Positions 16,039-57,306 of a stretch of DNA of 64,000 nt are shown here, one piece after another. Numbering within the stretch: position 1 is the first letter of the stretch; each line of letters begins with the position of its first letter. The notes under the pieces were generated by a model. The model ran no database searches, was not told the origin of the DNA, and saw only the letters and a list, made by a program, of their open reading frames with translations. The position numbers and the translations under genes were made by a program. The DNA comes from Candidatus Latescibacterota bacterium (GTDB lineage: Bacteria > Latescibacterota > UBA2968 > UBA8231), in contig OZ241362.1 in assembly GCA_965200315.1 (NCBI GenBank), positions 4,160,001 to 4,224,000 of the forward strand, written 5' to 3'.

Positions 16039-16056
16039 AGCGGGGGCTAAGGTGCG

Positions 16057-18809: not shown

Positions 18810-18811
18810 CC

Positions 18812-18904: not shown

Positions 18905-18910
18905 CAAGTA

Positions 18911-19687: not shown

Positions 19688-19841
19688 AACGCGATTCAAC
19701 CGACGATATGAGCGAAAACCAAAACATCGAATGGAAAGAAACGTGGCGGGACGAACACCTAAAATGGATCTGCGGTTTCACCAACGCTCAGGGCGGTGTA
19801 CTGGAAATCATTGGAAAGTAGTGGAAACAGACGATGAGTGA
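19684..19841 (+). pseudogene. internally deleted AlbA_2/RecG-like protein
   Basis: N-terminus MSENQNIEWKETWRDEHLKWICGFTNAQGG joined out of frame to a C-terminal-like GNHWKVVETDDE*. Confidence 0.7.
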
Positions 19842-28597: not shown

Positions 28598-28779
28598 TGA
28601 TGAAGTGATAGACCCCGGCGCACCCGAACGTCGCGCCCGGCGTGTGTTGCTCCTATGAGATGCAGCCACGCACGCCTGCGGCACAAAGCGACATGCTGAA
28701 AATAGAGACCGTGCAGGCCGGTTTCTTCAGCTAGTTCACGCAAACATCGCGCTTTCTGTAGAATCCCTATAGTCTTCAT
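28593..28779 (-). pseudogene. cas4: N-terminal remnant of Cas4
   Basis: GLHGLYFQHVALCRRRAWL...VRRGLSLH matches the Cas4 first Fe-S Cys (CxRxxW) and GxxxH motifs; the sequence then breaks into the cas1 tail. Confidence 0.75.
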
Positions 28780-30793: not shown

Positions 30794-31464
30794 CGGGGTT
30801 CTCCTTTGGACCAGTTGGCGGTGAGCCGCAGGGCCTCGTCGAGTTTGAGGGGTCGGCTGGGTTGAATCGTATGGAGGAGGTACGGTCCCGCTTCGAGATT
30901 GACGGCCGGGTCAAATAGGCGTGCCGTGTGCAGATTGAGATGGATATCGTGCTGTGATTTGCAGGGTTCGAGAAGACCGACACCCGTGCGGCCAAGCCCA
31001 AGCCTGACGACGAGTTGATTGGGCTGCTCTCCATAGGCGTCGCGTGCAATACGAAGCGGATCGGCGTGTAGAAAGCAGCCATAAAAGACCGAATCCACGG
31101 CAACCTCTTGGATGTGGTAGTAATCTTTGATGTTGCCGCTCTTGCGGGCATTGTGGACGCTCTTCGGCATGCCGCACTCCATGTCCAAGTTGAGGCGACG
31201 CGCCAACGGACGGTTGAGCCGATTGTTGGCCCCCAGAAACAGCGACGTCTTGAATGGCAGAGCGGCCAGATGGTTGCGATAGTCAGGTTCTGTCGGCAAG
31301 CAAGGCGAACGCGGCGTCATGCCGAGCGCGGCCGCCGCCGCGAATGCCATTGCCGTATCGGTCACTAGGTCGTTGAGCGTCGCGGTGCCCGAAGGTACGG
31401 CGAGTCCATGCCATGCCCAGGGCGTCAGCGCGGTTAGTTGGTACGTGTAAACTGCTCCCACCAC
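30790..31464 (-). CDS. csc1: type I-D Cas5 (Csc1)
   Basis: 224-aa RAMP-like protein with VRLGLGRTG glycine loop, between csc2 and cas3. Confidence 0.7.
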   Translation of the reverse strand: MVGAVYTYQLTALTPWAWHGLAVPSGTATLNDLVTDTAMAFAAAAALGMTPRSPCLPTEPDYRNHLAALPFKTSLFLGANNRLNRPLARRLNLDMECGMPKSVHNARKSGNIKDYYHIQEVAVDSVFYGCFLHADPLRIARDAYGEQPNQLVVRLGLGRTGVGLLEPCKSQHDIHLNLHTARLFDPAVNLEAGPYLLHTIQPSRPLKLDEALRLTANWSKGEPR

Positions 31465-31467
31465 GGG

Positions 31468-32460
31468 TCACGCCTTCTTGGATGTGAAGTGCTGCTCAAA
31501 CAGATCGGCGATTTTCGGGGCGGCTTCCTCGTACCTCCTCCGCAGATCGGGATCGTCCTCCTCGAACGCCTGCACAAGTTGCTGCTGGTAGGCGGACGCT
31601 TCAGACGTATCCGCATGGACTCGGTAATGTCCTGACATTGTTTGCATCACAGCAGATACGATTTCCTCGACCGAGTTGCTTTGGGGGAGCGACCGCAACA
31701 GCTCGTAAGGCGAGGACATTGGAGTCTCAAGGCGAGCGGCGAACATCCCAGCAATATGGGTTCGCACATTGACGCCGGTGACCGAGGTTTGCCCTCCGTA
31801 GGAGCCAGCAAGGCCAAGGCTGAGTAGCAGGTGATCCAAGCCAATCGGCGGAAGCTGTCGGCCATTACTGGTTAGAAGCTGTATCAGAAGAGTACCGGGA
31901 AGGACGAAGTGCCGGGTGAAAAGATTTTCGCTATTCTTCTTTCCCTCAGCGTCCCACAGGGTTCCGGTTTCATCCCCGCGGTGGTGGAAGCTCTCACCTA
32001 CGCTGTCGCGGTACGGCGAAGTACTCAGTGCATCGGAGTATTGCACTGCGGCCTTGATCGGCAAAACTTGGGTTCCCTGCATAGCAGAATCCCCGAACAC
32101 CAACGTGTTGAGGTCTAGTGCTTCGCGAATCGGCATCCGGCCGCCGACTGCGGTGCGGTTCTGTGGCAACCTCCCGCCCGCGTTCCACGCCCGTAGCACC
32201 AGCAGCCCACGCCCCCGCTCACCGAACTTGAACTTACTCGGTGTCGCCCGGACGCGGCGCACACCGTCGCGATCCTCGATGTCCGTGATCTCCTCTTCGG
32301 CATTGCGGAATACTGTGGGGGCTACGATTTCGCGGATCACGGCGACGGCTATATGTCCCGCGTTGCGGCGCGTCGGCATCAGATAGGTGTCCTTGCCGTT
32401 GGCCGCCACTACTTCCTCAACTAGGTCGCCATCGTTGAGATACTTCATGAACTTGTCCAT
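31468..32460 (-). CDS. csc2: type I-D Cas7 (Csc2)
   Basis: REIVAPTVFR, PSKFKFGER, LVFGDSA, YSDALS, FVLPGT and YGGQTS Csc2-type motifs; AAGGAGG 8 nt before ATG 32460. Confidence 0.85.
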   Translation of the reverse strand: MDKFMKYLNDGDLVEEVVAANGKDTYLMPTRRNAGHIAVAVIREIVAPTVFRNAEEEITDIEDRDGVRRVRATPSKFKFGERGRGLLVLRAWNAGGRLPQNRTAVGGRMPIREALDLNTLVFGDSAMQGTQVLPIKAAVQYSDALSTSPYRDSVGESFHHRGDETGTLWDAEGKKNSENLFTRHFVLPGTLLIQLLTSNGRQLPPIGLDHLLLSLGLAGSYGGQTSVTGVNVRTHIAGMFAARLETPMSSPYELLRSLPQSNSVEEIVSAVMQTMSGHYRVHADTSEASAYQQQLVQAFEEDDPDLRRRYEEAAPKIADLFEQHFTSKKA

Positions 32461-32494
32461 CAACATTGCCTCCTTAGCATTTTGGTTGGACATG

Positions 32495-32956
32495 TCAGAC
32501 TTCTTGGGTTTCATCGTCAGTTGGTGCGCCGTTTTCCGCTTCGGGGATACCGCGCTCGCGGTAAGCCTCCAGCAAGGCAAAACGGTAGATCGCCGCTGCG
32601 CGCCGCTTCTCCTGCGAGGTCGGCTCTTTCGATTTGAAGACATTCCGCCAGACTTCGCACGCGAAATGGGTTGCGAATTCGATGCAGGCTTGGTCGAGAG
32701 GTTGACCGTCGCGATGCTTTTTTGCAGCAGCATTGCCCTTGCGCGTTAGCTCTTCCTCAAGCGTACCGGCAAGTCCCAGAATCAGGGCGGTCTTATCCCG
32801 GGATGTCGAACCGAGCGCACTGGGGTAGAATTCCAGCGCGGTCTTCCAACAGAGAAGCTGCTTGTTGGCTGAAGCACCGATGCCGATGCGCTTCTGGATT
32901 CGCGTCGCTAGCCATGCTAGTCGAATCAGGGGCTCCTGATTGTCTTTCAGATTCAC
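32495..32956 (-). CDS. cas11d: putative Cas11d small subunit translated internally from cas10d (153 aa)
   Basis: GGAGGTG SD followed 5 nt later by an in-frame GTG (codons GGEQV) in the 3' part of cas10d. Confidence 0.7.
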   Translation of the reverse strand: MNLKDNQEPLIRLAWLATRIQKRIGIGASANKQLLCWKTALEFYPSALGSTSRDKTALILGLAGTLEEELTRKGNAAAKKHRDGQPLDQACIEFATHFACEVWRNVFKSKEPTSQEKRRAAAIYRFALLEAYRERGIPEAENGAPTDDETQEV

Positions 32957-35440
32957 TTGTTCACCTCCAGTTTTTCTGATGTGTGCGAGCGCCTGCTCGC
33001 GTGTTTTCTCCTCAATCAGCGACCACGCTTGGTCTTTATTGCCGCCATGGCCGAGCCGATCGACGGCAAGTGCCCAAGCCACACAGAGTGCGCCGAGTTT
33101 AGTCGTTGGATCGGCAAGTTGCTTGGCCCATTCGATTCCCAAACCGGGTGCTTCAGCCATCTTCTCGAAGAGTTCTAGCTTAGACAGAGCATCGGGAAGT
33201 TGCTCAATGCGTAGGGAGTCTCCGCAGAGCAGTCGCTCCAACCACGCAGGCAGCGCATCAGAATAGAAAATTGCCGGATGCCTGCGTGGGGCACCGCGAA
33301 AGATGTGGATCGGACGCCCGAGGCGTCTGATGGCCTTGAGGACCATGTGAAGCCGGATCACTAGTTCCTTATCTGTATTGGGGAGAGTCTCCAGCCGGGC
33401 CACCCGAATACGCTGCGTCTGACAATCTAGCCCGTGGTAAACCGAGCCTTTCTTGATTTCTAGCCGATTGAGGTCGTGCAGCCCCATGGACTTGTCAGCA
33501 GCCTCGCGCTCAAAGGCCAACCCGCCGAAGAGCCCCATACTTACCGGAGAGGAGACAAGCGGCGGCAATTTGTTTTCCCGGAACTCGTCCTGCGCATTTT
33601 GGCGCAGTTGCAACTCGGCGAGGCAGACCGGACACAGATGGGTATCACCGGTATTACTGGATGGAGATGCCAAGTGGTCGTTGCGTCCGTCGCGCCCGGA
33701 AAACGCCGACGCCTTGATGCCGTGTGCCCGGGATGCGGTGTTAACTTTGCGCTCACTGCTGACCGGTTCATTGCACAGGATACAGCACTTCGGAGCGTTC
33801 TCGCCGTCGAATGGCATCGCCGGATGTCCTGATAGGTACGCCTCAAAACGTTGGCTCAGTGCTTTCACGATGGCACTTGAAACGTCCTCAATTTGGCATG
33901 AGAGCCCGGTGCGGCTGTCGTCTCCCTCCAACCAAAGCCCAACCCGACCGTCCCGGCCGAGGATGGCGTCCCGCAACTCCTGCCCGCTATCAGGATCTTC
34001 CTCGGCAAGTTGCCAGATCTCGCCGATCGCCCAAAGCGCGAGGAGAACGCAATATGCGCGTCTGTCTTTCTCTGCGGACTCAACAACCGGCGGGGGTTTC
34101 TTGCCCTTAGTTTGCATGAGACACAACAGTTCCTGCGCCCGAGCATGAGTGTCCGGCGCGGCCCCTTTGAGCTTGCTGTCGGTGTGATTGAGAGTGATCA
34201 CGAGAAACGCCAGCGCATGAGCGGGTTCCATATCCAAATCGCCGCCGTCTCCTTCTGGGTGATTGAGCGCCGGCTTTACGGTCGCTGCATCGGCACTCCC
34301 GTCGAAAGAACTCCAAGAAGTCGTCATGCCAGCCGCGTTGAACAGCATATTGATCTCTGCTAGGTGGTCGCGGGCAAATGGTTTTGGAAGCGCCAATAGA
34401 TTGATGAACTTGCTGTCCCAGTTTCCCTTGGGATCCATAACATCTCGACACGCCTTCCACGACGCTTCGCCTCCGACGAATTTGCACGCTAGGCGATTAT
34501 TGACCGCGAAGCGCAACCCATAGGGAAGATCGCCGAGAAAGCTGTCGAGGGCCTTCTTCTTGACGTCATCTGCATATTCTCGCGGGATAACGCACAGGAG
34601 TCTTCCATCGTGGACGATCTCAATCAGGGGCAGACGGCCTGTGAGCGTTTTGCAGGTTGTAGAGAGCGCACGCTGAAAGTGATCTAATAGAAAGGCATGG
34701 AGGTGGTCGTGGATTTCCACCTTCTCCCACTGCTTCAATCCGCCATCCTGAAGCACGGGCCAACGTTCGAGAAGGGAGAGTACACCATTGACACCTTCTG
34801 TGCTCGTGAACTGCCCTTCTAGCTTATCGGCCAACTCAACATAGCGGCAGGTCTTGGCGATTCCTCGGTCGTAGTCAGGGGCAAGGGGACTTTTATCCGC
34901 TTGGGTTCCTTCTACTTCCTCTATATAGTTGAGCATTGCAGCGGGTGAAATGTGGATGCGACGCTTCGCCAAGAACTGGCCAATCCCGTAGCGGCGCATT
35001 CGCTCCTCTACATCAGCAACATCAATTTCCTCTCCACGCGGCAATCCCAGGTCTTTATCGACGTCGTGCAGGAAGGCAATGCAGACGACCGCATAGGCAA
35101 GCCGTTCGATCTCTGCGAGGTTCGCTTCGCTCGACCAAGAACGCGGAGCGTCGGCAAGCCAGAACATCAGCGAGCCGCGGGCCACAGAAAGCAGATGATC
35201 CAGCAAGCTGATGTTGTCGTTTTGTTCCCAGCGTTCCGCCAATGCCGGATCCGGCGACCATCCTCCCTTGCCGCTGATGGTCACCAAACGTACGGGTCGT
35301 CCGTCAATTTTCCCGGCTGATTCTTTTCCCTTGGGACCGTCGCGATCATCGATAACTTGACGCTCGATACACTCGTCGAGGAACGCGCCGTACACCTTAA
35401 CGGCCTTTCGGTGCGCGAAGTCTTGAGATAGACCACTCAT
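32495..35440 (-). CDS. cas10d: type I-D Cas10d (Csc3) with N-terminal HD nuclease
   Basis: 981 aa; LLDHLL...FLHDVDK...LADK HD motifs; CxxC...CxxC zinc finger (CILC, CPVC); start overlaps the cas6 stop. Confidence 0.82.
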   Translation of the reverse strand: MSGLSQDFAHRKAVKVYGAFLDECIERQVIDDRDGPKGKESAGKIDGRPVRLVTISGKGGWSPDPALAERWEQNDNISLLDHLLSVARGSLMFWLADAPRSWSSEANLAEIERLAYAVVCIAFLHDVDKDLGLPRGEEIDVADVEERMRRYGIGQFLAKRRIHISPAAMLNYIEEVEGTQADKSPLAPDYDRGIAKTCRYVELADKLEGQFTSTEGVNGVLSLLERWPVLQDGGLKQWEKVEIHDHLHAFLLDHFQRALSTTCKTLTGRLPLIEIVHDGRLLCVIPREYADDVKKKALDSFLGDLPYGLRFAVNNRLACKFVGGEASWKACRDVMDPKGNWDSKFINLLALPKPFARDHLAEINMLFNAAGMTTSWSSFDGSADAATVKPALNHPEGDGGDLDMEPAHALAFLVITLNHTDSKLKGAAPDTHARAQELLCLMQTKGKKPPPVVESAEKDRRAYCVLLALWAIGEIWQLAEEDPDSGQELRDAILGRDGRVGLWLEGDDSRTGLSCQIEDVSSAIVKALSQRFEAYLSGHPAMPFDGENAPKCCILCNEPVSSERKVNTASRAHGIKASAFSGRDGRNDHLASPSSNTGDTHLCPVCLAELQLRQNAQDEFRENKLPPLVSSPVSMGLFGGLAFEREAADKSMGLHDLNRLEIKKGSVYHGLDCQTQRIRVARLETLPNTDKELVIRLHMVLKAIRRLGRPIHIFRGAPRRHPAIFYSDALPAWLERLLCGDSLRIEQLPDALSKLELFEKMAEAPGLGIEWAKQLADPTTKLGALCVAWALAVDRLGHGGNKDQAWSLIEEKTREQALAHIRKTGGEQVNLKDNQEPLIRLAWLATRIQKRIGIGASANKQLLCWKTALEFYPSALGSTSRDKTALILGLAGTLEEELTRKGNAAAKKHRDGQPLDQACIEFATHFACEVWRNVFKSKEPTSQEKRRAAAIYRFALLEAYRERGIPEAENGAPTDDETQEV

Positions 35441-36165
35441 ATAAGCCCCCTTGCGTATCCGATGCAGCCGAAGCCGTAGCGATTTTTCTCCCCAATCCCG
35501 AGAGTCCAAGCAGAACCTAGGTCTTCAAATGAGCCGCTGATGGCCAAAGGGCACACCATTCCGATGACAAACGCTGGCTTACTGCCGGAGATTTTGCGCG
35601 TATGAACCAACGTGGAATGCTTGGGATTAGCGCGGAGATACAACCTATCGGGCTCGACCCTCAATTTCACGTCGCGTCCGGTCAAACGGGAAAGGCGAAA
35701 GTTGACGGCTTCCTGTAAATCAGCCCCAGCCTTTGTCAGGTCATCGTGCCAACGCCCCTTTTGGCCGCGCACCGAAAGGGCAAGCGGCGAGAGCATAATC
35801 GTTGGCAGTGTCGCCGTTTCTCCTAGTCCGCAGACAACAGGAAGTTCCTCAAGTACCTTGTCCCAAGCCGACAAGTCTATTACGTCGCCGTTGGTTGCCG
35901 TCTTACGGACTGCCTCGGGAAGTAGGTGTTTAAGCACGGGCTCAAGCGGCCCCCCCTCGGCCCCGATCACTAGGGATTTCAGGAGGAACCCCTTGGAGGT
36001 GGCTGTCCCCACTGCGCCAAAGGACCAGTTGCCGGCATCGTGCCCGACCACATCCGTTCCTTGCGCTCCGCACGTAGTCCAAGCGTTGACGAGCGCACCA
36101 TGCAGGCTATCCAGAACGCGTACTCTCACATATTCTCCATGTGGAGCCAAAAGTTTTATTCTCAT
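35437..36165 (-). CDS. cas6: CRISPR-associated endoribonuclease Cas6
   Basis: C-terminal glycine loop LGIGEKNRYGFG; GGAGGA RBS. Confidence 0.88.
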   Translation of the reverse strand: MRIKLLAPHGEYVRVRVLDSLHGALVNAWTTCGAQGTDVVGHDAGNWSFGAVGTATSKGFLLKSLVIGAEGGPLEPVLKHLLPEAVRKTATNGDVIDLSAWDKVLEELPVVCGLGETATLPTIMLSPLALSVRGQKGRWHDDLTKAGADLQEAVNFRLSRLTGRDVKLRVEPDRLYLRANPKHSTLVHTRKISGSKPAFVIGMVCPLAISGSFEDLGSAWTLGIGEKNRYGFGCIGYARGLI

Positions 36166-36194
36166 GCTTGTATCCTCCAATCTTTGCGTTAATT

Positions 36195-36250
36195 ATAATC
36201 ATATCATAATCATATCTAAAAATTCAGGTAACTTGCAAATTTTGCAGGTA
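36195..36250. promoter_or_regulatory. divergent promoter region with candidate WYL operator
   Basis: ATAATCATATC tandem x2 (36195-36216); TGCAAA-T-TTTGCA palindrome (36234-36246) bracketed by CAGGTA x2. Confidence 0.5.
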
Positions 36251-36261
36251 TTTCATACAAT

Positions 36262-37104
36262 ATGATAATGAAGAAACTGGAAGACGAGATTGCCCTGCGC
36301 TTCGCCGAAACAATGCTGTATTGGCGGGGGCACTTGCGAGCGAAAGAAGTTCAGGACTTTCTGGGCGTGTCCGAGCGTACAGCGCGCAACCTGATTTCAA
36401 AGTGGCGACGCTTTGATGGAATGTTACCGGCCTATCGGCCCAGTGCCGAGCGTTGCCTCGTCCCGATAGAGGAATTCGATCCTAACTCTGCCGTGACCAA
36501 CCCCAACATCGCGTTGTCCCTGCTACTAGTGGCAGATTGCCTTCCCGGGAATCCGTTTTCGCCGGTTGCCCCTCTCGGTGGTGGGCACGATACGGCGATC
36601 TCGGCTCCGATCAAGTCCAGAGCCTCTCGTGAATTACTTGCCGCATGTCTGGACCGCCAGCCTGTCCGGTTATTCTATGCCGCTAAAAAGGGCCGCCGAG
36701 AATTTGTCTTCCATCCATCCGCCCTCATTCGCTCTCGCGGGCGCTATCATCTGCGAGGTTACTGCACCAAAGAGCGAAATGCTGCCGGCGAATCGTTAGA
36801 TGGCCTCTACATTGACGTAGTCCCGGCCCGCGCCATTGAATCTCAGCGCTTAGATCAAAGCCCCTTCATTGGGCTAGAGGATGACGTTGACTGGAATACA
36901 TCTGAAGAACAGGAATTCCACCTGTCGTCCGATCTCACTGAAGATGAACGGCTGTGCTATGAACATGAGTACGGCATCGCCGACAGTGGCGTCCTCAAGC
37001 TCGAGAAAAGACGTGCGTTGATGCCCTATGTGCTACAGGAGTTATCGGAGCGTAGGTGTTGGCGCCGCGATGGCACCTCAGTGCCGATCTGGGAAGGATT
37101 GTAG
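36262..37104 (+). CDS. WYL-domain transcriptional regulator (wHTH-WYL-WCX-like)
   Basis: LRFAETMLYWRG...FLGVSERTA HTH; R.FHPSAL...GRYHLRGYC WYL domain; EYG...RRALMPY tail. Confidence 0.88.
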   Translation: MIMKKLEDEIALRFAETMLYWRGHLRAKEVQDFLGVSERTARNLISKWRRFDGMLPAYRPSAERCLVPIEEFDPNSAVTNPNIALSLLLVADCLPGNPFSPVAPLGGGHDTAISAPIKSRASRELLAACLDRQPVRLFYAAKKGRREFVFHPSALIRSRGRYHLRGYCTKERNAAGESLDGLYIDVVPARAIESQRLDQSPFIGLEDDVDWNTSEEQEFHLSSDLTEDERLCYEHEYGIADSGVLKLEKRRALMPYVLQELSERRCWRRDGTSVPIWEGL

Positions 37105-42148: not shown

Positions 42149-44704
42149 ATGCACAATGTAGCGCTCGATTTGCTCATCTTGCTCGCCGGGATTTGGCTAG
42201 TGGCCGTTACTTTGCGGCCGCTGGGCTTGCCGACGGTAATGGGCGAATTGATCGTCGGAGTCTTGGTGGGGCCGGCGGTTTTTGGTTGGATTGAGCCAGA
42301 CGAGGCCATTCAGTTGTTGGCCGAGATCGGCATCTTCTTTCTGATGTTCCACGCCGGGGTGGAGACCCAACCCAACGAGTTTTTCGCCGCGCTCAAGCGC
42401 TCGCTGGGGGTAGCGATTGCAGGGGCCGCAGTGCCTTTTGCCGTCAGCTTTGCGGTTGCCCAATTCTTCGGGCTGGACTTGGTGGCCTCCGTCTTTGTGG
42501 GGCTTATCATCGGAACCGCTACCGCAGTCGTAATCACCCTCAAAAGCCTCAAGGACTTGGGGCTGACCGATACCCGCATTGCGCGGATTATCGTTGCTAG
42601 CTGCGTCATCAACGACCTTTTGACCTTGATCTTTTTTAGCCTAGTAACCGGCGCGCTCTCCGGCGGCACCTTTGCCCCCTTGGACTTGGTAATTAACCTG
42701 GGCAAAGTAGTAGGTTTTTTTGCGGTCGCGCTGCTTTTGGGCACCTTTGTCTATCCCCGGCTCACCCTGCCCTTCCGCGCCGAAGGCGGCAAGGGCTTCA
42801 CCTTTGTGCTGCTGGCCGCCATTGCCGCCGGTCTTTTTGCCGAGGCCATTGGGCTGCACATGATCTTGGGTGCCTACTTGGCGGGCCTTTTCTTTGAGGA
42901 GCGCGTCGCCCACCCCAACTTGGTCAAAGTGGTAAACGACCGTGCGTACGGCATTGCCTATTCGTTCTTAGGGCCGATCTTCTTCATCTCGCTGGGCTTT
43001 TCCATTTCGTTTGACATTAGCGCGTCGGGGGTGGCGTTTATCGCGCTCTTGGCGGTGACGGTCATCTCCGGTCAGGTGCTCAGCGCCGGTAGCATGGCGC
43101 GGCGCATCGGCATGTCTTGGCGCGAGGCACTGACGGTGGGAGTGGGCATGTGCGGCCGCGCCGAGATGGCGTTTATCTTGGCCGCCCTAGCTTTGGCCCA
43201 AGGGGTCATCGATCAGGCCACCTTTAGCATTTTGATCTTTACCGCATTCCTGTTAAACCTTTTCACGCCACTGGCGCTCAAGGGCTGCGCCGTCCTCCTA
43301 GAAGGCCGGGTGGCGCATGGGGGAGACACCAACCTTGGGGTGTTTCAGATCGACAAGTTCAATACTCCACTCGTCGATAAAAACCTAGCCGACCGCGCCC
43401 TGCCTGCCGTGGAGGACGCCGTGGTCATCTATGGATACGGGCCAGAGGTCGAGACCCTAATAGAAGAGCTTTCCAGCCGACATCTGCCGCTGGTGGTGAT
43501 CGAAGAGGACGAGGCGACCGCACGGCAGCTTCAGACAAGCCCTGATGTGCGGGTCGTGCATGCACACCTAGCGGCGGAGACGCTGGACCTGCGGCCATTG
43601 ACCAAGGCCAAGGCGCTGGTGGCCAACGGCTCAGACGACGACAACGCCCTGTTTGCGCTCAGCGCCCGCGAGGCCGGTTTTGCCGGTCCAATCGTGGCGA
43701 TGATCGAACACCCCCAGCGCCGCGGCCCCATGCTGCTGGCGGGCGCAACCGCGGCCTTTACCCCCAACCACGTCCTTGCGGCGGCGATCGCCGTCCGCGC
43801 TAGCGCAAAGATCGGGCCGCGGGTGGCGGGGGTAGAGCCGCTCGACTCGCTGCTCGAAGTGGCCGAACTGCGCGTTCACGACCAAAGCTCGCTCGCCAAC
43901 CGCACCTTGGCCGAGACCGAGTTGTACACTCAGACTGGTGCCCACATCGTCGGGCAGTGGGCAGACGATGCGCTCGGCTCGCCACCGACCGCCGCGGAAA
44001 AGCTACAGCCCGGAGCCATTCTGGTGGCGGTCGGTACGCCCGAGAGCATTCACAGGTTAAACGACATGGCCCGGCCTATTACCCAGCAGGGGCCGATTGT
44101 GGTGATTGGCTTTGCCGATGTCGGGCAAAAGCTGGTCGAGATTCTCCGGGCTGCGGGCGAGGAAGTGCGGGTTATCAATGCGGTTGAAAGCACGGGAGTC
44201 GATGTGGTCGGCGACGTGCTCGACGTACGCGTCTTGGACCGCGCTGCCATTGCCGAGGCGCGGGTCGTCATCCTCGCCCTCGACAGCGACGGGGCCGCCC
44301 TGTTTGCCGCGGCGGTGGTGCGCGATCACGTTCCAGAGATCCCCTTGTTGGCCTGCGTGTCCCACGTTGAAAACGCAGACCGGGTGCAGCGCGCTGGCAC
44401 TGATTTTGCGCTCTCGGTCAGCCAGGTCGCTGGCCAGTTGTTGGTCCACCATGTCCTCGGAGAGATGGTTTCACACAAGCCTCGGATCAAGATGGTCAAG
44501 CTGCGGCCCGGCCCCCTCGCCGGACGCCATCCCCTCGCCGCGCACATCCGCGAGCGCACGGGCTGCTCGGTGGTGGCGGTTGAGCGGGCCGGCGATGTGA
44601 TCATGGAGATCCCGGCTTCGTTGGTGCTCGAGCCAGAAGACGCGCTCTATATCTGCGGCACGCCCGCAGCTTTTGATCGCTACTACGAGGAATTTCCGAC
44701 TTAG
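42149..44704 (+). CDS. CPA2 cation:proton antiporter with tandem TrkA_N/TrkA_C (RCK) domains
   Basis: GELIVGVLVGP and GMCGRAEMA membrane motifs; IYGYG and VIGFADVG RCK_N; two RCK_C repeats. Confidence 0.88.
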   Translation: MHNVALDLLILLAGIWLVAVTLRPLGLPTVMGELIVGVLVGPAVFGWIEPDEAIQLLAEIGIFFLMFHAGVETQPNEFFAALKRSLGVAIAGAAVPFAVSFAVAQFFGLDLVASVFVGLIIGTATAVVITLKSLKDLGLTDTRIARIIVASCVINDLLTLIFFSLVTGALSGGTFAPLDLVINLGKVVGFFAVALLLGTFVYPRLTLPFRAEGGKGFTFVLLAAIAAGLFAEAIGLHMILGAYLAGLFFEERVAHPNLVKVVNDRAYGIAYSFLGPIFFISLGFSISFDISASGVAFIALLAVTVISGQVLSAGSMARRIGMSWREALTVGVGMCGRAEMAFILAALALAQGVIDQATFSILIFTAFLLNLFTPLALKGCAVLLEGRVAHGGDTNLGVFQIDKFNTPLVDKNLADRALPAVEDAVVIYGYGPEVETLIEELSSRHLPLVVIEEDEATARQLQTSPDVRVVHAHLAAETLDLRPLTKAKALVANGSDDDNALFALSAREAGFAGPIVAMIEHPQRRGPMLLAGATAAFTPNHVLAAAIAVRASAKIGPRVAGVEPLDSLLEVAELRVHDQSSLANRTLAETELYTQTGAHIVGQWADDALGSPPTAAEKLQPGAILVAVGTPESIHRLNDMARPITQQGPIVVIGFADVGQKLVEILRAAGEEVRVINAVESTGVDVVGDVLDVRVLDRAAIAEARVVILALDSDGAALFAAAVVRDHVPEIPLLACVSHVENADRVQRAGTDFALSVSQVAGQLLVHHVLGEMVSHKPRIKMVKLRPGPLAGRHPLAAHIRERTGCSVVAVERAGDVIMEIPASLVLEPEDALYICGTPAAFDRYYEEFPT

Positions 44705-45525
44705 CTATTGGGTGGATAGGCGCGGAACAAGTCTCGCTGCGCTTGTGTGAGGCGGGCGAATGTCTCTGGGGTGATGTGCTGCTTTTCATCCATGGTGGCG
44801 ATGTTTTGCGACATCATCCAATACGGCCCGTAGCCTACGTGCAGGGTCTTGCGCGTCTGCTCAGAGCGGTTGGTAAAACCGCCGTGGCGCAAGTTCTCGG
44901 TGAAGAGAATCGCGTCTCCGGCCTCGACCTCTAGGCCGATCATGTCGGGGTCTTGGTCCGGGTCGTTGCTGTGGGGCGAGGGCAGGTTGGTCTTGTGAGT
45001 GCCCGGCACCACGCAAAAGGCCCCCTGCTCGTTGGTGCAATCGTGGATGAAATAGACCATCCGCACCATCATGCAGTCGATGCCGTGGTCTGTGTAGCTG
45101 TAGCGGTACTTTTGGCTGGCTGAAGCGGTGCCGCCGTGGCAGCCGGTGGCGTTGCCACGGTAGCGGATGCGAATCTCGGAGTTGTTGATCGTCGGCCGCT
45201 GTTTGACGATGCCGTGGACGTAGCTCATCGTCGGCTGGTGATCGAGCAAAACGTCGAAGGCCGGGTTGGCGTTCCAGTAGTCTTCGATGATGAGGGTCTT
45301 GCCCTCGGCCCGCTCGCCGTTGGCGTGGTAGCCGCGCTCGGGATTGGCGTGGTAGTTAGCCCCCCAGCCGCTTTGCTTGCGCGGTGGCTGCGCGACATGC
45401 GCGAGCGCGTGTTCTTCCAGCTCATCAACGGCCGCGACCAGCGCGGCCACTTGGCTCTCGTTCAGCAGCTTGTCAATGACGATGTAGCCTTGGCGGTCGA
45501 ATTCAAAGGTTTCGATTTCGTTCAC
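44701..45525 (-). CDS. PhyH family dioxygenase
   Basis: FDRQGY, FCVVPGTHK and AGDAILFTENLRHG motifs. Confidence 0.88.
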   Translation of the reverse strand: MNEIETFEFDRQGYIVIDKLLNESQVAALVAAVDELEEHALAHVAQPPRKQSGWGANYHANPERGYHANGERAEGKTLIIEDYWNANPAFDVLLDHQPTMSYVHGIVKQRPTINNSEIRIRYRGNATGCHGGTASASQKYRYSYTDHGIDCMMVRMVYFIHDCTNEQGAFCVVPGTHKTNLPSPHSNDPDQDPDMIGLEVEAGDAILFTENLRHGGFTNRSEQTRKTLHVGYGPYWMMSQNIATMDEKQHITPETFARLTQAQRDLFRAYPPNS

Positions 45526-46495: not shown

Positions 46496-46571
46496 GGCCC
46501 GTTCGTCTAGAGGCCTAGGACGCCGGCCTCTCACGCCGGTAACACGGGTTCAAATCCCGTACGGGCTACCA
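46496..46571 (+). tRNA. tRNA-Glu (anticodon CTC)
   Basis: GGCCCGT/ACGGGCT acceptor stem, CCGGC-CTCTCAC-GCCGG anticodon arm, GGTTCAAATCC T arm, encoded CCA. Confidence 0.97.
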
Positions 46572-46834: not shown

Positions 46835-48259
46835 CTACGAACACCAGTAGGCGTACAGGCGGGCGTTATTCAGTGCGAAACGCAGGCGCACCGGCTGTTC
46901 TCGCAACTCGTGCAGAGCCCGGCCGTTGCGCCAGCGCACGGGCACGGCGACGCCGTCCTCGGCGATGGCGACGCCGTCTTGGGCTGTATAGCCGGGAATG
47001 GGCTGCCCTTCCGCGTCGAGCAATTCGACGGTTAGCTGCCCGTAATCCGCCTTGGCGTTGACTTGCAATTCGTCCCCAGCCAGCGCAAAGGCCCGAGTCG
47101 TTATCTGCCCGCCGTCAAAACTGGCGTTGAGCGACGCGAAACCGTCGAGGCGCAGCATGGCCAAGCCAATGCCCATCGTCCCCACATCCTGATCGGCCGC
47201 AATCGGCGGGTCGAATTCGCACGGAATCTTGGCGTGCCGCCGCGCTGTGCCGCGGTAGTAGATATAGAGCTTGTCGCCCACGGGAATCGGCGGCGCACCG
47301 CTGAGCATTAGCTGGAACCGGTCCCACTCGCCCACCGCGCCCAAACCTACCAGGGGCTCGCCCGGCACCCGCTGCCAGCGCTCCCCATCGCGGCTGCACA
47401 AAAGCCGCAGGACTTGGGTTTGTTGCCGCGGGCGTTTGTCGAAGTGGGTCAGGATGCCCAAGTAGTGAGCTCCGTAGTTGAAGCCCGTGTTGTTGTAGAG
47501 CGCCTCTTCTTCGTGGAGCGGCGCTAGGAAAGGCCGCGGCGGAGACCAGTGGACGAAGTCCGCGCTCGTGCTCATCAGCCGCTCGGGCACACCGCGCAAA
47601 AAGGCCACGTAGCGCCGGCGCTCGGTATCTGCCATGAGCGACTGGGCATCGCCGACCGGCCCCAAGTCGCCGGTGCCGGGCCGCGGATGAAAGCGAAAAA
47701 GCGGGGCCGGCGAATGCGACCAGTGGAGCCCGTCCGGCGAAGTGGCACTGTAGATGCCCGAGCGCGGGCCGTCCCAGTCGTAGCTCGACCAGCCGATAGC
47801 CTTGTAGCGGCGGGTGGGATCCGGGTCGAGTGAGTCCTTGAGCATGGTCTCCCAGTGATCCTGCCCTTCGTGGTGGGTCGCGGGGATGACGATGTTGTTG
47901 TCCTTAGAGCCGAGGGCTTCGTGGATCCCGAGCGCGGGCCGCTCCCAGTGGATCCCGTCCGGCGACAGCGCGAGGCATTGCACGTGTTCGCACCATACCG
48001 CATAGTGCCCGGCCATGTACCACGCCTTGAAAATTTGTTCCTCGGCGTCGAAAATCACCGCCGCAGTCATGCCGCTGTGCTGTTCCCACGGCGCTTCCTG
48101 CTTGAGCACGGGATGTGTGCCGTACTTCTCCGCTTGGTGGAAGACTCGCGCCACGTTTTCTTGGCGCTCAATGTCGTCCATATCCACGAAGAGGCGTTTG
48201 CGGTGGTCGAGTGGGGGGCAGTTCACGGGCCTAGGTCCGCATCCCCGACTGCGATTCAA
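46835..48259 (-). CDS. beta-propeller glycoside hydrolase-like protein (GH32/43/130-like)
   Basis: Asp-box repeats SPDGIHW, SPDGLHW, SADFVHW and SRDGERW; LRLDGF motif. Confidence 0.7.
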   Translation of the reverse strand: MNRSRGCGPRPVNCPPLDHRKRLFVDMDDIERQENVARVFHQAEKYGTHPVLKQEAPWEQHSGMTAAVIFDAEEQIFKAWYMAGHYAVWCEHVQCLALSPDGIHWERPALGIHEALGSKDNNIVIPATHHEGQDHWETMLKDSLDPDPTRRYKAIGWSSYDWDGPRSGIYSATSPDGLHWSHSPAPLFRFHPRPGTGDLGPVGDAQSLMADTERRRYVAFLRGVPERLMSTSADFVHWSPPRPFLAPLHEEEALYNNTGFNYGAHYLGILTHFDKRPRQQTQVLRLLCSRDGERWQRVPGEPLVGLGAVGEWDRFQLMLSGAPPIPVGDKLYIYYRGTARRHAKIPCEFDPPIAADQDVGTMGIGLAMLRLDGFASLNASFDGGQITTRAFALAGDELQVNAKADYGQLTVELLDAEGQPIPGYTAQDGVAIAEDGVAVPVRWRNGRALHELREQPVRLRFALNNARLYAYWCS

Positions 48260-48965
48260 AGCTCAGCAGTCGTTTCAAGGTCGGCGTCGCCCGCGCCACG
48301 ACCTCGGGGCGCGCCAGCTTGAACTGGTCCTGCTGAGGCTTCACAAACGAGCGGCAGAAGAATCCCAACAGAATCATCCGATCCTGCTCGGTGTGATTGG
48401 CCCCGCTGCCGTGCCAAGTCGCGCCGTGGAAGACGACGATATCGCCCTTTTGGACGTCCAGTTGGATGACGTCGTCGTACTCTTTTGCTGGATCGGGCGG
48501 GCACCCGCGTTTGTAGCTGCCCGGCACGATCTGCGTGGCCCCGTTTTCCGGCGCGAAGTCGTCGAGTACGTAGATGGTATTGGCGCAGAGGGCGATGGAT
48601 GGCGGCGGCTGGGGAAAGCTACCCAGCGGAAAGTCGATGTGCAGGCGGCCCGCCGACGCACCTGGGCCGATGTGATTGACTGTGAAGCTGCTCAAGATGC
48701 AGTTGTCGCCGAGCAGGTACTCTTGGAGTGCCAAAACCTGCGGGAGCTGGATCATCTCCTCGTAAATGCGGCCCTTGTTGACGAGGTTCCACACGCGCTG
48801 GGCGCGGCCGTCGAGATAGACATGCTCTCCGCCGGCGGCCCGCTCCTGGGCAATCAGCGCGGCCGAGCGGTCTCGCAGAGCATTGGCTTGGGCCGGGGTC
48901 AATGCCCCTTTGAGCACGGCGTACCCGTATTCGTCGATATGGGCCTTGGCGTCGTCGATGGTCAT
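48231..48965 (-). CDS. PhyH family dioxygenase
   Basis: LHIDFP (HxD), ENGATQIVPGS and TWHG motifs. Confidence 0.9.
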   Translation of the reverse strand: MTIDDAKAHIDEYGYAVLKGALTPAQANALRDRSAALIAQERAAGGEHVYLDGRAQRVWNLVNKGRIYEEMIQLPQVLALQEYLLGDNCILSSFTVNHIGPGASAGRLHIDFPLGSFPQPPPSIALCANTIYVLDDFAPENGATQIVPGSYKRGCPPDPAKEYDDVIQLDVQKGDIVVFHGATWHGSGANHTEQDRMILLGFFCRSFVKPQQDQFKLARPEVVARATPTLKRLLSFESQSGMRT

Positions 48966-52230: not shown

Positions 52231-53142
52231 ATGCACTACGACCCATGCCAACGCACCTTTGACTGCGAGCCGACGCTGACCGATTCCCAAGTCCTCGAAT
52301 TCTGCCGCGAGGGCCACCTTTTGCTCAAAGGCGTTGTATCCGACGAGATCAACCAGCGCACCTGTGCTTGGCTCGACGGCGATATTCCCGCCAACCCAAG
52401 CTACATCCCCGACGGCCTGACCGAGGCCGACCTCGACCGCATCCGCTTTACCCACGAGCCGAGTTCCATCTTCTTGGAGGACTGGTTCATCGAGCACGTC
52501 CTGCTCAATGCCCGGTTAGCCGGTGCCATGCGCTCGCTTCTAGGCCCTAACATCGGCCTGCCTATCATAGCCAGCCACCACCGGGCCGAATGCCCCATGG
52601 AAGCCCAGGGCTGGCACCAAGATGCCGATCACATCTTCGGCCCGGAGCTGCGCTTTTTGGAGGTCTTCTACTTTCCCCAAGACACGCCCGTGGAGCTGGG
52701 GCCGACCGAGTTGGTGCCTGGCTCGCACATCCAACCGGGTCGCCGCGACAGCGAAGAAGGGGGCGTGTTTTGCGACGGTCCGGCTGGCACCATTGGGATT
52801 CACCATCAGAGCATCATGCACCGCCGCGGCAAGTCCACCGCCAAGGGGCTGCGCCGGATGCTCAAGTACAATTATTGGCGCACGGCACCTCCCCAGCGCA
52901 ACTGGATCGTCGAGGAGGACTTTGATTTCCAGAGCGCGTATTACGGCGGCCACGGCACGGCGCGCTACTATGCCCACATGTTCTATTGGCTCTGCGGCGA
53001 GGGGGATCAGTTCCGCATCATCGGCGGCCAGGCTTGGCCTTGGCAGTCCCCAAACCAGATCGGGCCATCGTATGGCTTTGACGCCGAGGAAGGCTATCAG
53101 CCCAATTGGCGTCGGGACAACCCCGACGGGTATGCGCGTTGA
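52231..53142 (+). CDS. PhyH family dioxygenase
   Basis: WHQDA, GPTELVPGSH and IMHRR motifs; GAGGAG RBS. Confidence 0.85.
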   Translation: MHYDPCQRTFDCEPTLTDSQVLEFCREGHLLLKGVVSDEINQRTCAWLDGDIPANPSYIPDGLTEADLDRIRFTHEPSSIFLEDWFIEHVLLNARLAGAMRSLLGPNIGLPIIASHHRAECPMEAQGWHQDADHIFGPELRFLEVFYFPQDTPVELGPTELVPGSHIQPGRRDSEEGGVFCDGPAGTIGIHHQSIMHRRGKSTAKGLRRMLKYNYWRTAPPQRNWIVEEDFDFQSAYYGGHGTARYYAHMFYWLCGEGDQFRIIGGQAWPWQSPNQIGPSYGFDAEEGYQPNWRRDNPDGYAR

Positions 53143-53504: not shown

Positions 53505-55265
53505 TCACTCCCGGAGCGCCAAATGCAGCTCCCGCAACTGCTCCGGCGACACCTCGCCCGGTGCGCCCATGAGCGGATCCTGTGCGTTTTGGTTCAGCGG
53601 GAAGGCGATGACCTCGCGTATGTTCGGTTCGTCCGCCAGCAACATGACGATGCGGTCGATGCCGGGCGCGATGCCGCCATGAGGCGGAGCGCCGTAGCGC
53701 AAGGCGCGGATCAGGCCCCCAAACTTGCGGTCCACTTCCCGCGGCGAATGCCCGGCAATCGCAAACGCCTTGTACATGATGTCTGGTCTGTGATTGCGGA
53801 TGGCACCGCTCGACAGTTCGAGGCCGTTGCAGACGATGTCGTACTGATAGGCCTTGATCTCCAGCGGCGGTTGCGTCTCCAGCGCCGCCATACCGCCCTG
53901 CGGCATGGAAAACGGATTGTGCGAAAAGGCCACGCAGTCGCGTTCCTCGTCCCATTCGTACATGGGAAAATCGACGACCCAGCAGAATTCATAACAACCC
54001 TCCCGCCGCAGGTTGAGCCGGTCTGCCAGATGCAGGCGCAACCGTCCCGCTAGAGCCGCGGCCGCGGCTGGCGGCCCGGCGACGAAGAAAATGGCGGCCC
54101 CCGGCGCGGCGGCACATTCCTCGATGATGCGGTTGCGCACACTCTGTTCTAGGGCCGCGGCGATTGAACCTGTGGCTTGGGCTCCGTTGATGAGGTACGC
54201 CAGCCCCTTGCCGCCCGCTTCTTTGACGAATGCTTCGAGGCGGTCGAAAAACGAACGCGGCTGCCCCTCCAGCTTGGGAACGCATAGGGCGCGGACGACT
54301 CCTCCTGCTGCGACGATGTCCCTGAACAGTCTAAACGAGGAGTCCGCAAAGATCGCGGAGAGGTCTTGAATTTCGAGCCCGAAGCGCAGGTCTGGTTTGT
54401 CCGTGCCGAACCTCAGCAGAGAGTCGGCGTGGGAAAGACGCGGGAACGGCGGCTCGGTCACTTTCCAATCGGTGAATTCGCGGAACAGACCCGAAAAGAG
54501 GGCCTCGACCACAGCAAAGACGTCCTCCTGCTCAACGAAGGCCATCTCGAGGTCGAGCTGGTAGAACTCGCCGGGGGAGCGGTCGGCGCGGGCATCTTCG
54601 TCGCGGAAGCAGGGCGCGATCTGGAAGTAGCGGTCGAAGCCAGACACCATCAGCAACTGCTTGAACTGCTGAGGTGCCTGCGGCAGCGCGTAGAATTGGC
54701 CGGGATAGAGCCGGCTCGGCACGAGGTAATCGCGGGCGCCCTCGGGCGAGATGCTAGTGAGAATGGGCGTCTGGAACTCGGCAAAGCCCATCTTTGTCAT
54801 GCGCCGTCTGATGCTGGCGATCACCTCCGAGCGGAGCTGAATGCGGCGGTGCAGCCCGGCCCGGCGCAGGTCTAAGAAGCGATAGCGCAACCGGGTGCTC
54901 TCTCCCACTTCGGAATCTTCCGCTATGGAAAAGGGGAGTGGCTGCGCTGACGAGAGCACTTTTAGCTCGCGGACGGCGAGTTCCACTTCTCCGGTCTCCA
55001 TCGCGCTGTTGATGGTCTCAGGCGTCCGTTCGCGCACATCGCCCACGACGCGGATTACGGATTCGCGGAGAACCTTTGACGCAGTTGCCGCAGCGTCATT
55101 TTCCGGCGAGATCACGAGTTGGGTGATGCCGTAGTGGTCGCGCAGATCTAGGAACAATACGCCTCCGTGGTCCCGGCGGCGATGAATCCAGCCACTCAGG
55201 CGAATGGTCTGGCCGGCGTGGTGCTTGCGGAGTTCGCCACAGGTGTGCGTGCGATAGCGGTGCAT
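53505..55265 (-). CDS. aspS: aspartate--tRNA ligase, probably non-discriminating (Asp/Asn)
   Basis: [18 protein letters not shown] (His typical of ND-AspRS), [18 protein letters not shown] and [12 protein letters not shown]. Confidence 0.96.
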
Positions 55266-55276
55266 GGTAGCCTCCT

Positions 55277-55319
55277 AAAAACAGAAAACCCGCCGCGATG
55301 CGTGTTCGCGACGGGTTTT
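55277..55319 (-). terminator. attenuator terminator hairpin upstream of aspS
   Basis: Minus strand AAAACCCGTCGCGA-ACACGCA-TCGCGGCGGGTTTT then CTGTTTTT, directly before the AGGAGG RBS. Confidence 0.85.
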
Positions 55320-55348
55320 GAATGCTTGGGTTGGGTTGGAGTTAGTCG

Positions 55349-55414
55349 TCAGAACACGCGCAATGGAGCTAGCGGGTTATTATTCTGCGCGCGGTCGTTG
55401 TGACGGGTCATCAT
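55349..55414 (-). CDS. putative aspS leader peptide MMTRHNDRAQNNNPLAPLRVF
   Basis: 21-aa uORF with AAT AAT AAC tandem Asn codons plus AAC GAC; its 3' end is complementary to the terminator 5' arm and loop. Confidence 0.75.
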   Translation of the reverse strand: MMTRHNDRAQNNNPLAPLRVF

Positions 55415-55422
55415 AGTCGTCT

Positions 55423-55450
55423 AAGATAGCGGAAGGCCGAATTCCGTCAA
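55423..55450 (-). promoter_or_regulatory. sigma70-like promoter for the aspS leader
   Basis: TTGACG, 16-nt spacer, TATCTT, 8 nt before the leader ATG (nearly leaderless). Confidence 0.55.
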
Positions 55451-55481
55451 GCTGGGCTATGCGCTTGCCTCGGGCATCCAA

Positions 55482-55511
55482 TGTGACTACAATTATCCTA
55501 ATGTAGTTACA
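55482..55511. promoter_or_regulatory. inverted-repeat operator of the TA operon
   Basis: TGTGACTACA-N10-TGTAGTTACA directly upstream of the antitoxin RBS. Confidence 0.65.
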
Positions 55512-55524
55512 AGGAGATCAATGA

Positions 55525-55791
55525 ATGAACGCATCCATACGCGACCTGAAGAGCAGGTTGTCGCGCTACCTTCGGCAAGTCCAGCGGGGAGAGACCGTTG
55601 TCGTAACTTATAGAGGGAAGCCCATCGCCCGCCTCGTGCCGCTACCGCCCCTCCTGTTGGAAGAGCGGCTGTCCACCTTGCCGGGGATCAATGCCGGGAC
55701 AGGGGGAAAACCAAGAGGTGCCACGCGCCCAGTGCGCGTCAAACCCGGACAGAAAAGCGTTGCGGACATCGTGGTAGAAGAGCGGCGGTGA
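55525..55791 (+). CDS. Phd/YefM family antitoxin
   Basis: SIRDLKSRLSRYLRQVQRGETVVVTYRGKPIARLVP. Confidence 0.92.
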   Translation: MNASIRDLKSRLSRYLRQVQRGETVVVTYRGKPIARLVPLPPLLLEERLSTLPGINAGTGGKPRGATRPVRVKPGQKSVADIVVEERR

Positions 55792-56225
55792 TCCTCTTTC
55801 TCGATACATCGGCTCTCGTCAAGCTGTACGTCGAGGAGGACGACTCCGAGGCGGTACGCGGCTGGGTAGAGGGGGCCGAGGAAGTTGCCTGCCAGTGGAT
55901 CGCATACGTGGAGGCGCGATCTGCTTTGGCTGCCAAGCAGCGTTTGGGCGACTTGTCCGATGCAGAGTTGGCGGAATGCAGGGAGGAACTAGAGCGGGAT
56001 TGGGAGCGATATCACCGCGTCGCGGTTACGCAGACTCTCCTGCGACGAGCCGGTGCTCTGAGCGAACAACTCGGCGTCCGCGCCTATGACAGTGTTCACC
56101 TTGCGGGGGCTGAGTACCTGCAATCCTCGCTGGGAGTGCCGATAACCTTCGGGTCCTTCGACCGCCGACAGGTCGATGCTGCCGCACAGCTTGGAATGCT
56201 CATTGCATCGGTTGATGACAACTGA
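55788..56225 (+). CDS. vapC: VapC (PIN) toxin
   Basis: FLDTSALVKLY, RAYDSVHLA and SFDRR motifs; GTGA overlap with the antitoxin. Confidence 0.9.
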   Translation: MILFLDTSALVKLYVEEDDSEAVRGWVEGAEEVACQWIAYVEARSALAAKQRLGDLSDAELAECREELERDWERYHRVAVTQTLLRRAGALSEQLGVRAYDSVHLAGAEYLQSSLGVPITFGSFDRRQVDAAAQLGMLIASVDDN

Positions 56226-56463
56226 GCTGTGTGCGGCTTATTATACAGTCCTACGTCATTCATGCGATGATCCGCAGATAAACGCATAAGGACGCAGAAT
56301 GGTATGGATAAAACAAGCCGCCGCTCGAATCGTTCAACTCATTATAATTCTCTCTCCGAATTTCAAACGGATACACTACCCGTGCTTGTTGCCCCCATCT
56401 GTAAAACCGTACATTAACTCGAACCCGGCCCCAACTAGTCCCTCCAACCAAAGGACAATTCCC

Positions 56464-57306
56464 ATGAGCGGCCTTACCTCCGACCAACTCGACTTCTATC
56501 GCAGCGAAGGCTATCTCCTCGTCGAGGAGGTCCTCGACCCTTGTGTCTTCGACCGCCTCATCACTGAAATTGACGCGATTGTCGATACGGCCGCCCAAGA
56601 GGCCGAACTGTCCGAGTTGCACGCAGACCTACCTTTTGCCAAGCGCCTAGTCCACATCCACGCCCAGTTGGCCGACCCTGAGCCGCTGTTGCGCCAAGTC
56701 AACGGCAAGCTCAAAACCGAGGGCATGTTCGCCATTTTGACCCAACCGGCGCTGCTCGACATAGTCGAATCCGCGATCGGCCCCGAGATATTGGCTCACC
56801 CGCAATTCAACTTGCGCGCCAAATTGCCCAACCAAAACGCCACTGTGGTCCCCTGGCACCAAGACTTGGGTTATTTGCAGCCCGACGCCGAAGAAACCTT
56901 CATGGTCAATTTTTGGATCCCCTTGGTCGATGCCACTCCTGAAAACGGCTGCATGGAAGTCATTGCCGGCAGCCACCGCGCCTCGCTCATCGGGCACGAG
57001 CACGGCTTGGGACCGGGGGCCAATTTCAAGGGCATCACCGATCAGTACTTGCCTCCCGGCGAGCAAGTTAGCTGCCCGGTCCAAGTCGGCGGCGTACTGC
57101 TCATCCAGCACAAGACCATCCACCGCTCCATCCCCAACCACTCCGACCACATCCGCTGGAGCCTCGACCTGCGCTACAGCGACCCAGCCCAGCCCAGCGG
57201 CCGCGACGGCGTCCCCGGTTTTATAGCCCGCAGCCAAGCACATCCCGAATCGGTGGCCCAGAGCCTGGACGATTGGCTGGCGTTGTTCGAGACCACTGCT
57301 CCATAA
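56464..57306 (+). CDS. PhyH family dioxygenase
   Basis: PWHQD, NFWIPLVDATPENGC and IHRS motifs. Confidence 0.92.
   Translation: MSGLTSDQLDFYRSEGYLLVEEVLDPCVFDRLITEIDAIVDTAAQEAELSELHADLPFAKRLVHIHAQLADPEPLLRQVNGKLKTEGMFAILTQPALLDIVESAIGPEILAHPQFNLRAKLPNQNATVVPWHQDLGYLQPDAEETFMVNFWIPLVDATPENGCMEVIAGSHRASLIGHEHGLGPGANFKGITDQYLPPGEQVSCPVQVGGVLLIQHKTIHRSIPNHSDHIRWSLDLRYSDPAQPSGRDGVPGFIARSQAHPESVAQSLDDWLALFETTAP

Follow-up and report, generated by a model that had tools for sequence, protein, structure and literature searches.

The window analysed here is a 64-kb stretch of DNA from a Candidatus Latescibacterota bacterium, and the locus of interest lies on its minus strand, where a gene for aspartate--tRNA ligase is preceded by promoter-like hexamers, a short open reading frame rich in asparagine codons, and an intrinsic terminator. 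In the order in which they would be transcribed, the features are:

55445..55450, minus strand: -35 hexamer TTGACG, of which TTGAC is invariant in five of five aligned leaders
55423..55428, minus strand: -10 hexamer TATCTT, separated from the -35 hexamer by a 16-nt spacer, with the leader ATG 8 nt downstream
55349..55414, minus strand: leader ORF of 21 codons plus stop (MMTRHNDRAQNNNPLAPLRVF, then the stop), with homologues in four relatives (L001, L002, L003 and L005)
55385..55405, minus strand: segment 1, which supplies the 5' strand of helix 1:2 (anti-antiterminator; consensus 15 pairs)
55394..55399, minus strand: AAC GAC (Asn-Asp) within segment 1, a possible second stall site read from the sequence
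55376..55384, minus strand: Asn run AAT AAT AAC, main stall site in the proposed model; every relative retains or extends the run
55347..55363, minus strand: segment 2, the partner of segment 1 or segment 3 in the folds, holding the stop codon TGA (55351-55349)
55300..55313, minus strand: segment 3, the terminator 5' arm and loop, antiterminator partner of segment 2 (13 bp)
55277..55319, minus strand: intrinsic terminator, with a hairpin at 55319-55285 and a U-rich tail at 55284-55277 (fold and terminator scan)
55271..55276, minus strand: aspS Shine-Dalgarno sequence AGGAGG, read from the sequence (aspS ATG at 55265)
53505..55265, minus strand: aspS, bacterial-type aspartate--tRNA ligase of 586 amino acids with His33 in RRRDHGG (NF001750, 801.6 bits)

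An initial annotation had read this arrangement as an attenuator of aspS that senses asparagine. The parts that it described are present: the promoter (TTGACG/TATCTT), the 21-amino-acid upstream open reading frame (uORF; 55414-55349, minus strand) with three tandem Asn codons plus an Asn-Asp, the U-tailed terminator, the 2:3 antiterminator pairing, and the aspS ribosome-binding site were all recovered on the minus strand at the positions that it had assigned, and segment 2 does begin 12 nt past the last Asn codon.

Divergent from the aspS leader, on the plus strand at 55525-56225, lie genes for a Phd-family antitoxin of 88 aa and a PIN-domain toxin of 145 aa, a pair that is also found in L002; a promoter-like site of the Phd/PIN genes (55465-55493) and the leader promoter are arranged back to back. 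The 64 kb contain five PhyH-family (phytanoyl-CoA dioxygenase-like) paralogues (24526-25365, 44701-45525, 48231-48965, 52231-53142, and 56299-57306), two of which flank aspS, and a sole tRNA gene, tRNA-Glu (CTC), at 46496-46571 on the plus strand. Elsewhere in the window, a type I restriction-modification cluster (13069-22953, plus strand) encodes HsdM, a Schlafen/AlbA_2 protein, HsdS, HsdR, and a YgjP-like metallopeptidase. In HsdM, the N-terminal domain (13069-13689) and the methylase domain (13226-15505) fall in overlapping ORFs in different frames, which may reflect a frameshift or merely the way in which the ORFs were called. On the minus strand, a gene cluster possibly related to CRISPR-Cas (28736-37104) comprises a DEAD/ResIII helicase (28736-30793), a Csc2-like protein (31468-32733, minus strand), and a 1004-amino-acid protein without an assigned family (32495-35509, minus strand), and a WYL-domain protein is encoded on the plus strand at 36262-37104.

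When ATG-initiated small ORFs of 12-40 amino acids were collected from the whole window, the leader ORF was the only one of 326 that contains three consecutive asparagines. Asparagine accounts for 2.95% and aspartate for 6.05% of the 14,039 residues encoded by 33 ORFs of the window, and the binomial probability of the asparagine content ranges from 1e-4 to 1e-2 per leader across the homologues described below. A Shine-Dalgarno sequence was looked for before the leader ATG (55414) and is absent. The distance from the -10 hexamer to the ATG is 8-9 nt in five of five leaders; the leader mRNA would thus be leaderless or nearly so, and the leader ORF may be initiated in leaderless fashion. No Pfam family was found for the ORF antisense to the leader region (55167-55403, plus strand).

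We collected relatives of the locus by scanning genome contigs with AspS as the query, which returned 600 pattern-matching stretches, 593 of them encoding a relative, from which the best 80 loci were retained. The four nearest among these best 80 of 593 relatives all come from Candidatus Latescibacterota metagenome-assembled genomes (MAGs), and their AspS proteins (rechecked) are 92% (L002), 90% (L001), 83% (L005), and 82% (L003) identical to that of the window; the remaining loci belong to other phyla, with AspS identities of 41-64%. L001, L002, and L005 are located on complete chromosomes (OZ241867.1, OZ244561.1, and OZ242318.1, respectively). The leader comparison thus spans five species of one lineage (the window, L001, L002, L003, and L005). 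A homologous leader lies directly 5' of aspS in all four close relatives, and the five leaders can be aligned over the whole length between the -35 hexamer and the terminator. The encoded peptides are MMTRHNDRAQNNNPLAPLRVF (window), MMTRQNDRTQNNNNPLASLRVF (L002), MITRQNDRTQNNNPLAPLRVF (L001), MLTRQKDRTCNNQANSGNNNPLAPLRVF (L005), and MMTRQNACTHNNPANPGDNNPPAPLRVF (L003). Each leader carries four to six Asn codons and exactly one Asp codon. The leaders differ by indels of +3 and +21 nt, multiples of three that keep the frame, and the stop codon falls inside segment 2 in all five. Asn codons swap AAT and AAC synonymously yet persist, Asn6 is kept in four of the five leaders, and the insertions in L003 and L005 bring extra Asn codons. 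The extended ORF of L005 (45 aa) had a single match in the protein database, a near-identical 72-aa ORF.

The 160-nt leader of the window folds with a minimum free energy (MFE) of -46.8 kcal/mol (z = -3.05; 2 of 200 shuffles were equally stable), and this MFE fold combines the terminator with the 1:2 helix of the initial annotation. That helix needs one correction: the pairing CGCGCGCAG/UUGCGCGUG given for it is a window-specific part of a longer conserved helix, for which RNAalifold predicts a consensus of 15 pairs between CGUCAGAAC.ACCGCA and UGCG.CGUGUUCUGACG. In the window, a CAG-to-CAC change costs one of these pairs, and the G in CGCGCGCAG strengthens the inner part. The terminator hairpin has 14 pairs, 8 of them G-C, and a 7-nt loop, and is followed by CTGTTTTT. 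Predicted free energies are -18.7 kcal/mol for the 1:2 region of the window (-18.8 to -32.0 in the relatives), -16.0 for the 13-bp 2:3 helix (-16.0 to -16.2 kcal/mol overall), and -17.9 kcal/mol for the 3:4 core; in these calculations the three pairings are balanced in energy and mutually exclusive.

Folding under constraints that mimic a ribosome distinguishes two states. When the A site is set at the final Asn codon (mask reaching to +12) and the terminator still lacks its 3' arm, 2:3 folds in five of five leaders; with the ribosome at the stop codon the terminator alone forms. At equilibrium, the full-length RNA of this attenuator (att1) prefers the terminator despite the stall mask, so the model requires kinetic trapping of the antiterminator. 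In nascent RNA without a ribosome, 2:3 is already preferred over 1:2 in the window, L002, and L005, so that default termination through 1:2 is not assured. A generic terminator scan returned one site as compared to 0.9 expected from shuffles, which is chance level, and the case therefore rests on conservation in the relatives.

Segment 2 lies within 18 consecutive nucleotides that do not differ among the five sequences, and the terminator, including its loop and the start of the U-tail, lies in a 32-nt invariant run; in aspS itself, 109 of 215 shared four-fold sites (51%) are invariant, and no invariant run in the coding sequence (1,758 nt) exceeds 29 nt. Between segments 2 and 3 the leaders have a freely varying spacer. 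If the terminator loop has to pair with segment 2, its invariance is to be expected. Among the five leaders we found no compensatory covariation in the att1 helices: every 2:3 and 3:4 pair is constant, and variation in 1:2 is confined to the segment 1 side and hence yields none. Aligning the aspS upstream regions of the relatives, the check that the initial annotation had put forward, recovered the conserved Asn runs and the invariant segments 2-4 in four of four cases and no covarying helices.

The leader and aspS remain together while the gene upstream of them changes: it belongs to the divergent Phd/PIN pair in the window and L002, encodes a DUF5916 protein in L001 and a HEPN protein in L003, and had no detectable family in L005. 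A covariance model built from the five leaders (R1) and run over the window and the 80 loci matched its five training sequences and, weakly, the second units described below, with nothing significant elsewhere in the window or in the other 76 loci; a match in L062 (E = 0.55) was rejected as the terminator of an upstream gene. Exact or near-exact copies of segment 2 or of the terminator are likewise absent from the rest of the window.

Two of the relatives carry a second Asn-rich unit (att2) between the first terminator and aspS (L001:1310-1500 and L005:1305-1500), which the window, L002, and L003 do not have. Unlike the first, att2 has a GGAG Shine-Dalgarno sequence; it encodes a leader of 29-30 codons (MTFRYNHTAYAFANNNDNNPAIRARWRWP or MTSRHKHAAHAFSNSDSNNNPAIRARWRWP) and has its own terminator and a strong antiterminator, and its segment 2 starts 11 nt past the last Asn codon. 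Under the stall mask, the att2 antiterminator (-29.3 kcal/mol) is the MFE structure, also when the terminator is included in the RNA. Between the two att2 sequences compared, two substitutions in segment 3 keep the pairing in both terminator and antiterminator, and two pairs of the inner side helix are broken by substitutions. R1 detects the two att2 units with scores of 26.2 (E = 1.5e-4) and 18.8 bits (E = 0.014), and they may be old duplicates of att1. The spacer that follows the terminator in the window and in L002 resembles the one between att1 and the second leader, and that of L003 resembles the one between att2 and aspS; these junction sequences point to the tandem arrangement as the ancestral one, from which two different, independent deletions would have removed a unit.

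All seven leaders (five att1 and two att2) hold exactly one Asp codon beside or among their Asn codons, and in att1 a ribosome stalled at AAC-GAC, within segment 1, would likewise leave segment 2 free; AspRS, moreover, makes Asp-tRNA(Asp) in any case. The leader might then report mainly on Asp-tRNA(Asp) or on general translation capacity, with the Asn run secondary. We consider this quite improbable, given that Asn codons outnumber Asp codons 4-6:1 in each leader although aspartate is twice as common in the proteins of the window, that Asp7, kept in four of the five att1 leaders, is lost in L003, and that the insertions in L003 and L005 add codons for asparagine.

Another reading is that nothing is regulated here: the hairpin would be a constitutive terminator that leaks, or would mark where a small RNA or peptide gene located upstream of aspS ends. 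This would fit the chance-level result of the terminator scan, and the terminated transcript of ~135 nt could act on its own, as reported for rnTrpL/peTrpL. This is nonetheless the kind of explanation to which we give very little credence: the element stays fused to aspS across four different upstream contexts, a plain terminator needs no invariant loop complementary to segment 2, and two relatives have tandem units, probably duplicates, before the same gene.

An asparagine-sensing logic for aspS makes sense if the enzyme is non-discriminating and makes Asp-tRNA(Asn) for GatCAB. The initial annotation had pointed to the His of RRDHGG in AspS, and this residue indeed matches that of the Pseudomonas aeruginosa Asp/Asn ligase (4wj3), where Escherichia coli (1c0a) and Thermus thermophilus (1efw) AspRS have Leu. 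His at this site, usually together with Gly at a second one, reportedly marks non-discriminating AspRS, and Leu the discriminating form; the determinants in the P. aeruginosa enzyme are His31 and Gly82/83. At the second determinant the window AspRS has Glu83, not Gly. In an alignment of 79 AspRS sequences (the window and 78 loci, L041 and L044 having been dropped as truncated), 70 have His at the first determinant, and these 70 carry Gly at the second site in 8 cases and Glu in 41, the Glu group including alphaproteobacterial loci; the Bacteroidales-type AspRS with Leu or Phe at the first site mostly have Lys at the second. Judged from this alignment, Gly at the second determinant is a soft feature. 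With His33, the AspRS of the window may be non-discriminating, and the indirect pathway to Asn-tRNA may be in use. Genes for asnS, gatCAB, asnA/asnB, and tRNA-Asn were looked for within the 64-kb window, and none was found there.

Leader-peptide attenuators of E. coli and Salmonella control trp, his, leu, thr, ilv, and pheA, with pheST as the aminoacyl-tRNA synthetase case. The element upstream of aspS resembles these enterobacterial systems in its short ORF with a run of regulatory codons, its three mutually exclusive helices, and its U-tailed terminator, and likewise in a stop codon placed so that a ribosome finishing the ORF masks segment 2 and in a distance of ~12 nt from stall site to segment 2. 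It differs from them in that its codons specify asparagine and its target is aspS, so that the sensed codon does not correspond to the amino acid for which the enzyme is named, in a leader ORF without a Shine-Dalgarno sequence located 8 nt past the -10 hexamer, and in the serial pair present in two species; it has no sequence homology to the enterobacterial leaders.

A full-text literature search found no described Asn-codon attenuator, although Lopatovskaya et al. (2010) may list an aspS leader; neither aspS nor asparagine appears in the main text of Naville and Gautheret (2010), and nothing relevant was found in the literature on Latescibacterota and asparagine. Other precedents share individual features with the locus. 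Leaderless polycysteine short ORFs of mycobacteria are reported to act as Cys-responsive attenuators (bioRxiv 10.1101/834739); they are similar in being leaderless regulatory short ORFs with a run of codons for a single amino acid that control downstream genes, and they differ in amino acid, phylum, and target. In Shewanella, an RSSVM screen predicted a structured 5' UTR of aspS, labelled 'tRNA synthetase leader' (PMC2659441), which is, like ours, a computational structured leader with a terminator upstream of aspS; the accessible portion of that report describes no leader peptide or Asn codons and leaves the mechanism unspecified, and the phylum is a different one. In Clostridium acetobutylicum, the T-box of the transamidation operon reportedly binds tRNA(Asn) and tRNA(Glu) (PMC4052509; Saad et al., 2012, 2013, cited in PMC4206432). 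As in our model, the charging of tRNA(Asn) controls genes of the indirect pathway, AspRS among them, through a choice between terminator and antiterminator; in the T-box, however, uncharged tRNA binds the leader RNA, whereas here a ribosome stalled on Asn codons would be the sensor. The aspS leader, unlike a T-box, has no T-box motif or specifier loop. The C. acetobutylicum T-box is the nearest functional precedent and, as far as we found, the sole known regulation of a non-discriminating AspRS.

T-box-like elements also turned up among the retained loci. We scanned the 450 nt 5' of aspS in the 80 loci for small ORFs with at least three Asn per six residues, and eight loci were positive: the four close relatives (L001, L002, L003, and L005), L055, L058, L059, and L073. 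In L055 and L058, which are Clostridiales MAGs with His-type aspS, the gene is preceded by T-box-like leaders (L055:1247-1438 and L058:1247-1439) that the Rfam T-box model scores at 61.4 bits (E ~1e-13) and 58.4 bits (E ~1e-12), respectively, as compared to a gathering score of 93; the Asn-run uORFs of these two loci lie inside the T-box-like leaders and were for this reason rejected as similar leaders. The codon-plus-purine rule for reading T-box specifiers, applied to their specifier-loop region (GAAUAACA), suggests AAC (Asn) as the specifier in both. L059 and L073 are Bacteroidales loci, with AspRS of the Leu type or unresolved, whose small upstream ORFs have scattered Asn codons and are probably chance occurrences.

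An alternative is that the Latescibacterota switch is real and yet set by a protein, an uncharged tRNA, or a metabolite, the uORF being incidental. In its favour, aspS follows T-box-like leaders in L055 and L058, an RNA-binding factor could also account for the nucleotide invariance of segments 2-4, and the uORF has no Shine-Dalgarno sequence. Against a known RNA element stands the absence of any Rfam family from positions 54500-56500 of the window, where the matches to the terminator were chance ones below threshold (CrfA at 20.4 bits, E = 0.72, and CRISPR-DR21) and T-box (RF00230) gave no match at E up to 10; at gathering score, 20 loci including L001, L002, L003, and L005 yielded two tRNAs, both in L036, and nothing else. 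Control by such a factor would moreover leave unexplained the frame-preserving indels, the retention of Asn runs by two distinct leaders, a stop codon placed within segment 2, and the spacing of 11-12 nt, and we judge it unlikely.

The anatomy of the element, its conservation in the relatives, and, in folding calculations, its alternative structures are shown here, and the core of the initial annotation, an Asn-codon attenuator controlling aspS, is borne out by the four of four relatives that have the leader, the invariant segments 2-4, the folds under the stall mask, and the tandem att2. We regard it as likely that aspS is controlled by ribosome-mediated (leader-peptide) transcription attenuation, with Asn codons plus one Asp codon as the regulatory codons. 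The element is real and conserved, and the predicted attenuator is probably functional.

Stalling of the ribosome and kinetic competition between the folds are deduced from this arrangement, and the attenuator would operate as follows. Transcription would begin at or close to the leader AUG and so yield a leaderless mRNA, and a ribosome would translate the 21-codon leader while RNA polymerase makes the downstream segments. When Asn-tRNA(Asn) is plentiful, the ribosome would reach the UGA in segment 2 and cover this segment, so that the 3:4 terminator forms and transcription ends before aspS. When Asn-tRNA(Asn) is scarce, the ribosome would stall on AAU-AAU-AAC, or on AAC-GAC in segment 1, and would occlude segment 1 while leaving segment 2, 12 nt downstream, free; segment 2 could then pair with the 5' arm and loop of the terminator as 2:3, allowing polymerase to read into aspS. 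If the leader is not translated at all, the 1:2 helix would favour termination.

A wider reading that joins these elements is possible, and we offer it tentatively as something that may well prove wrong. The output of a non-discriminating AspRS followed by GatCAB would be monitored by stalls on the Asn codons of leaderless mini-ORFs, which would make this the first leader-peptide attenuator for asparagine and for a tRNA-dependent amino-acid pathway. Ancestrally, two such attenuators would have acted in series, their effects multiplying into a switch-like response, and two or more independent deletions would later have left a single one; the same leader may head an Asn regulon that includes, for example, gatCAB.

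What is notable about the element is its unusual specificity, its apparent leaderless initiation, and its natural tandem form. If the Asn-codon attenuator is true, the leader peptide would implement the same logic as the Clostridium T-box through an unrelated sensor, and asparagine would join the amino acids that have classical attenuators. The locus would also provide a compact regulatory element, with an apparently leaderless leader ORF, from a phylum without cultured members, and these species would offer a natural comparison of single and tandem attenuators.
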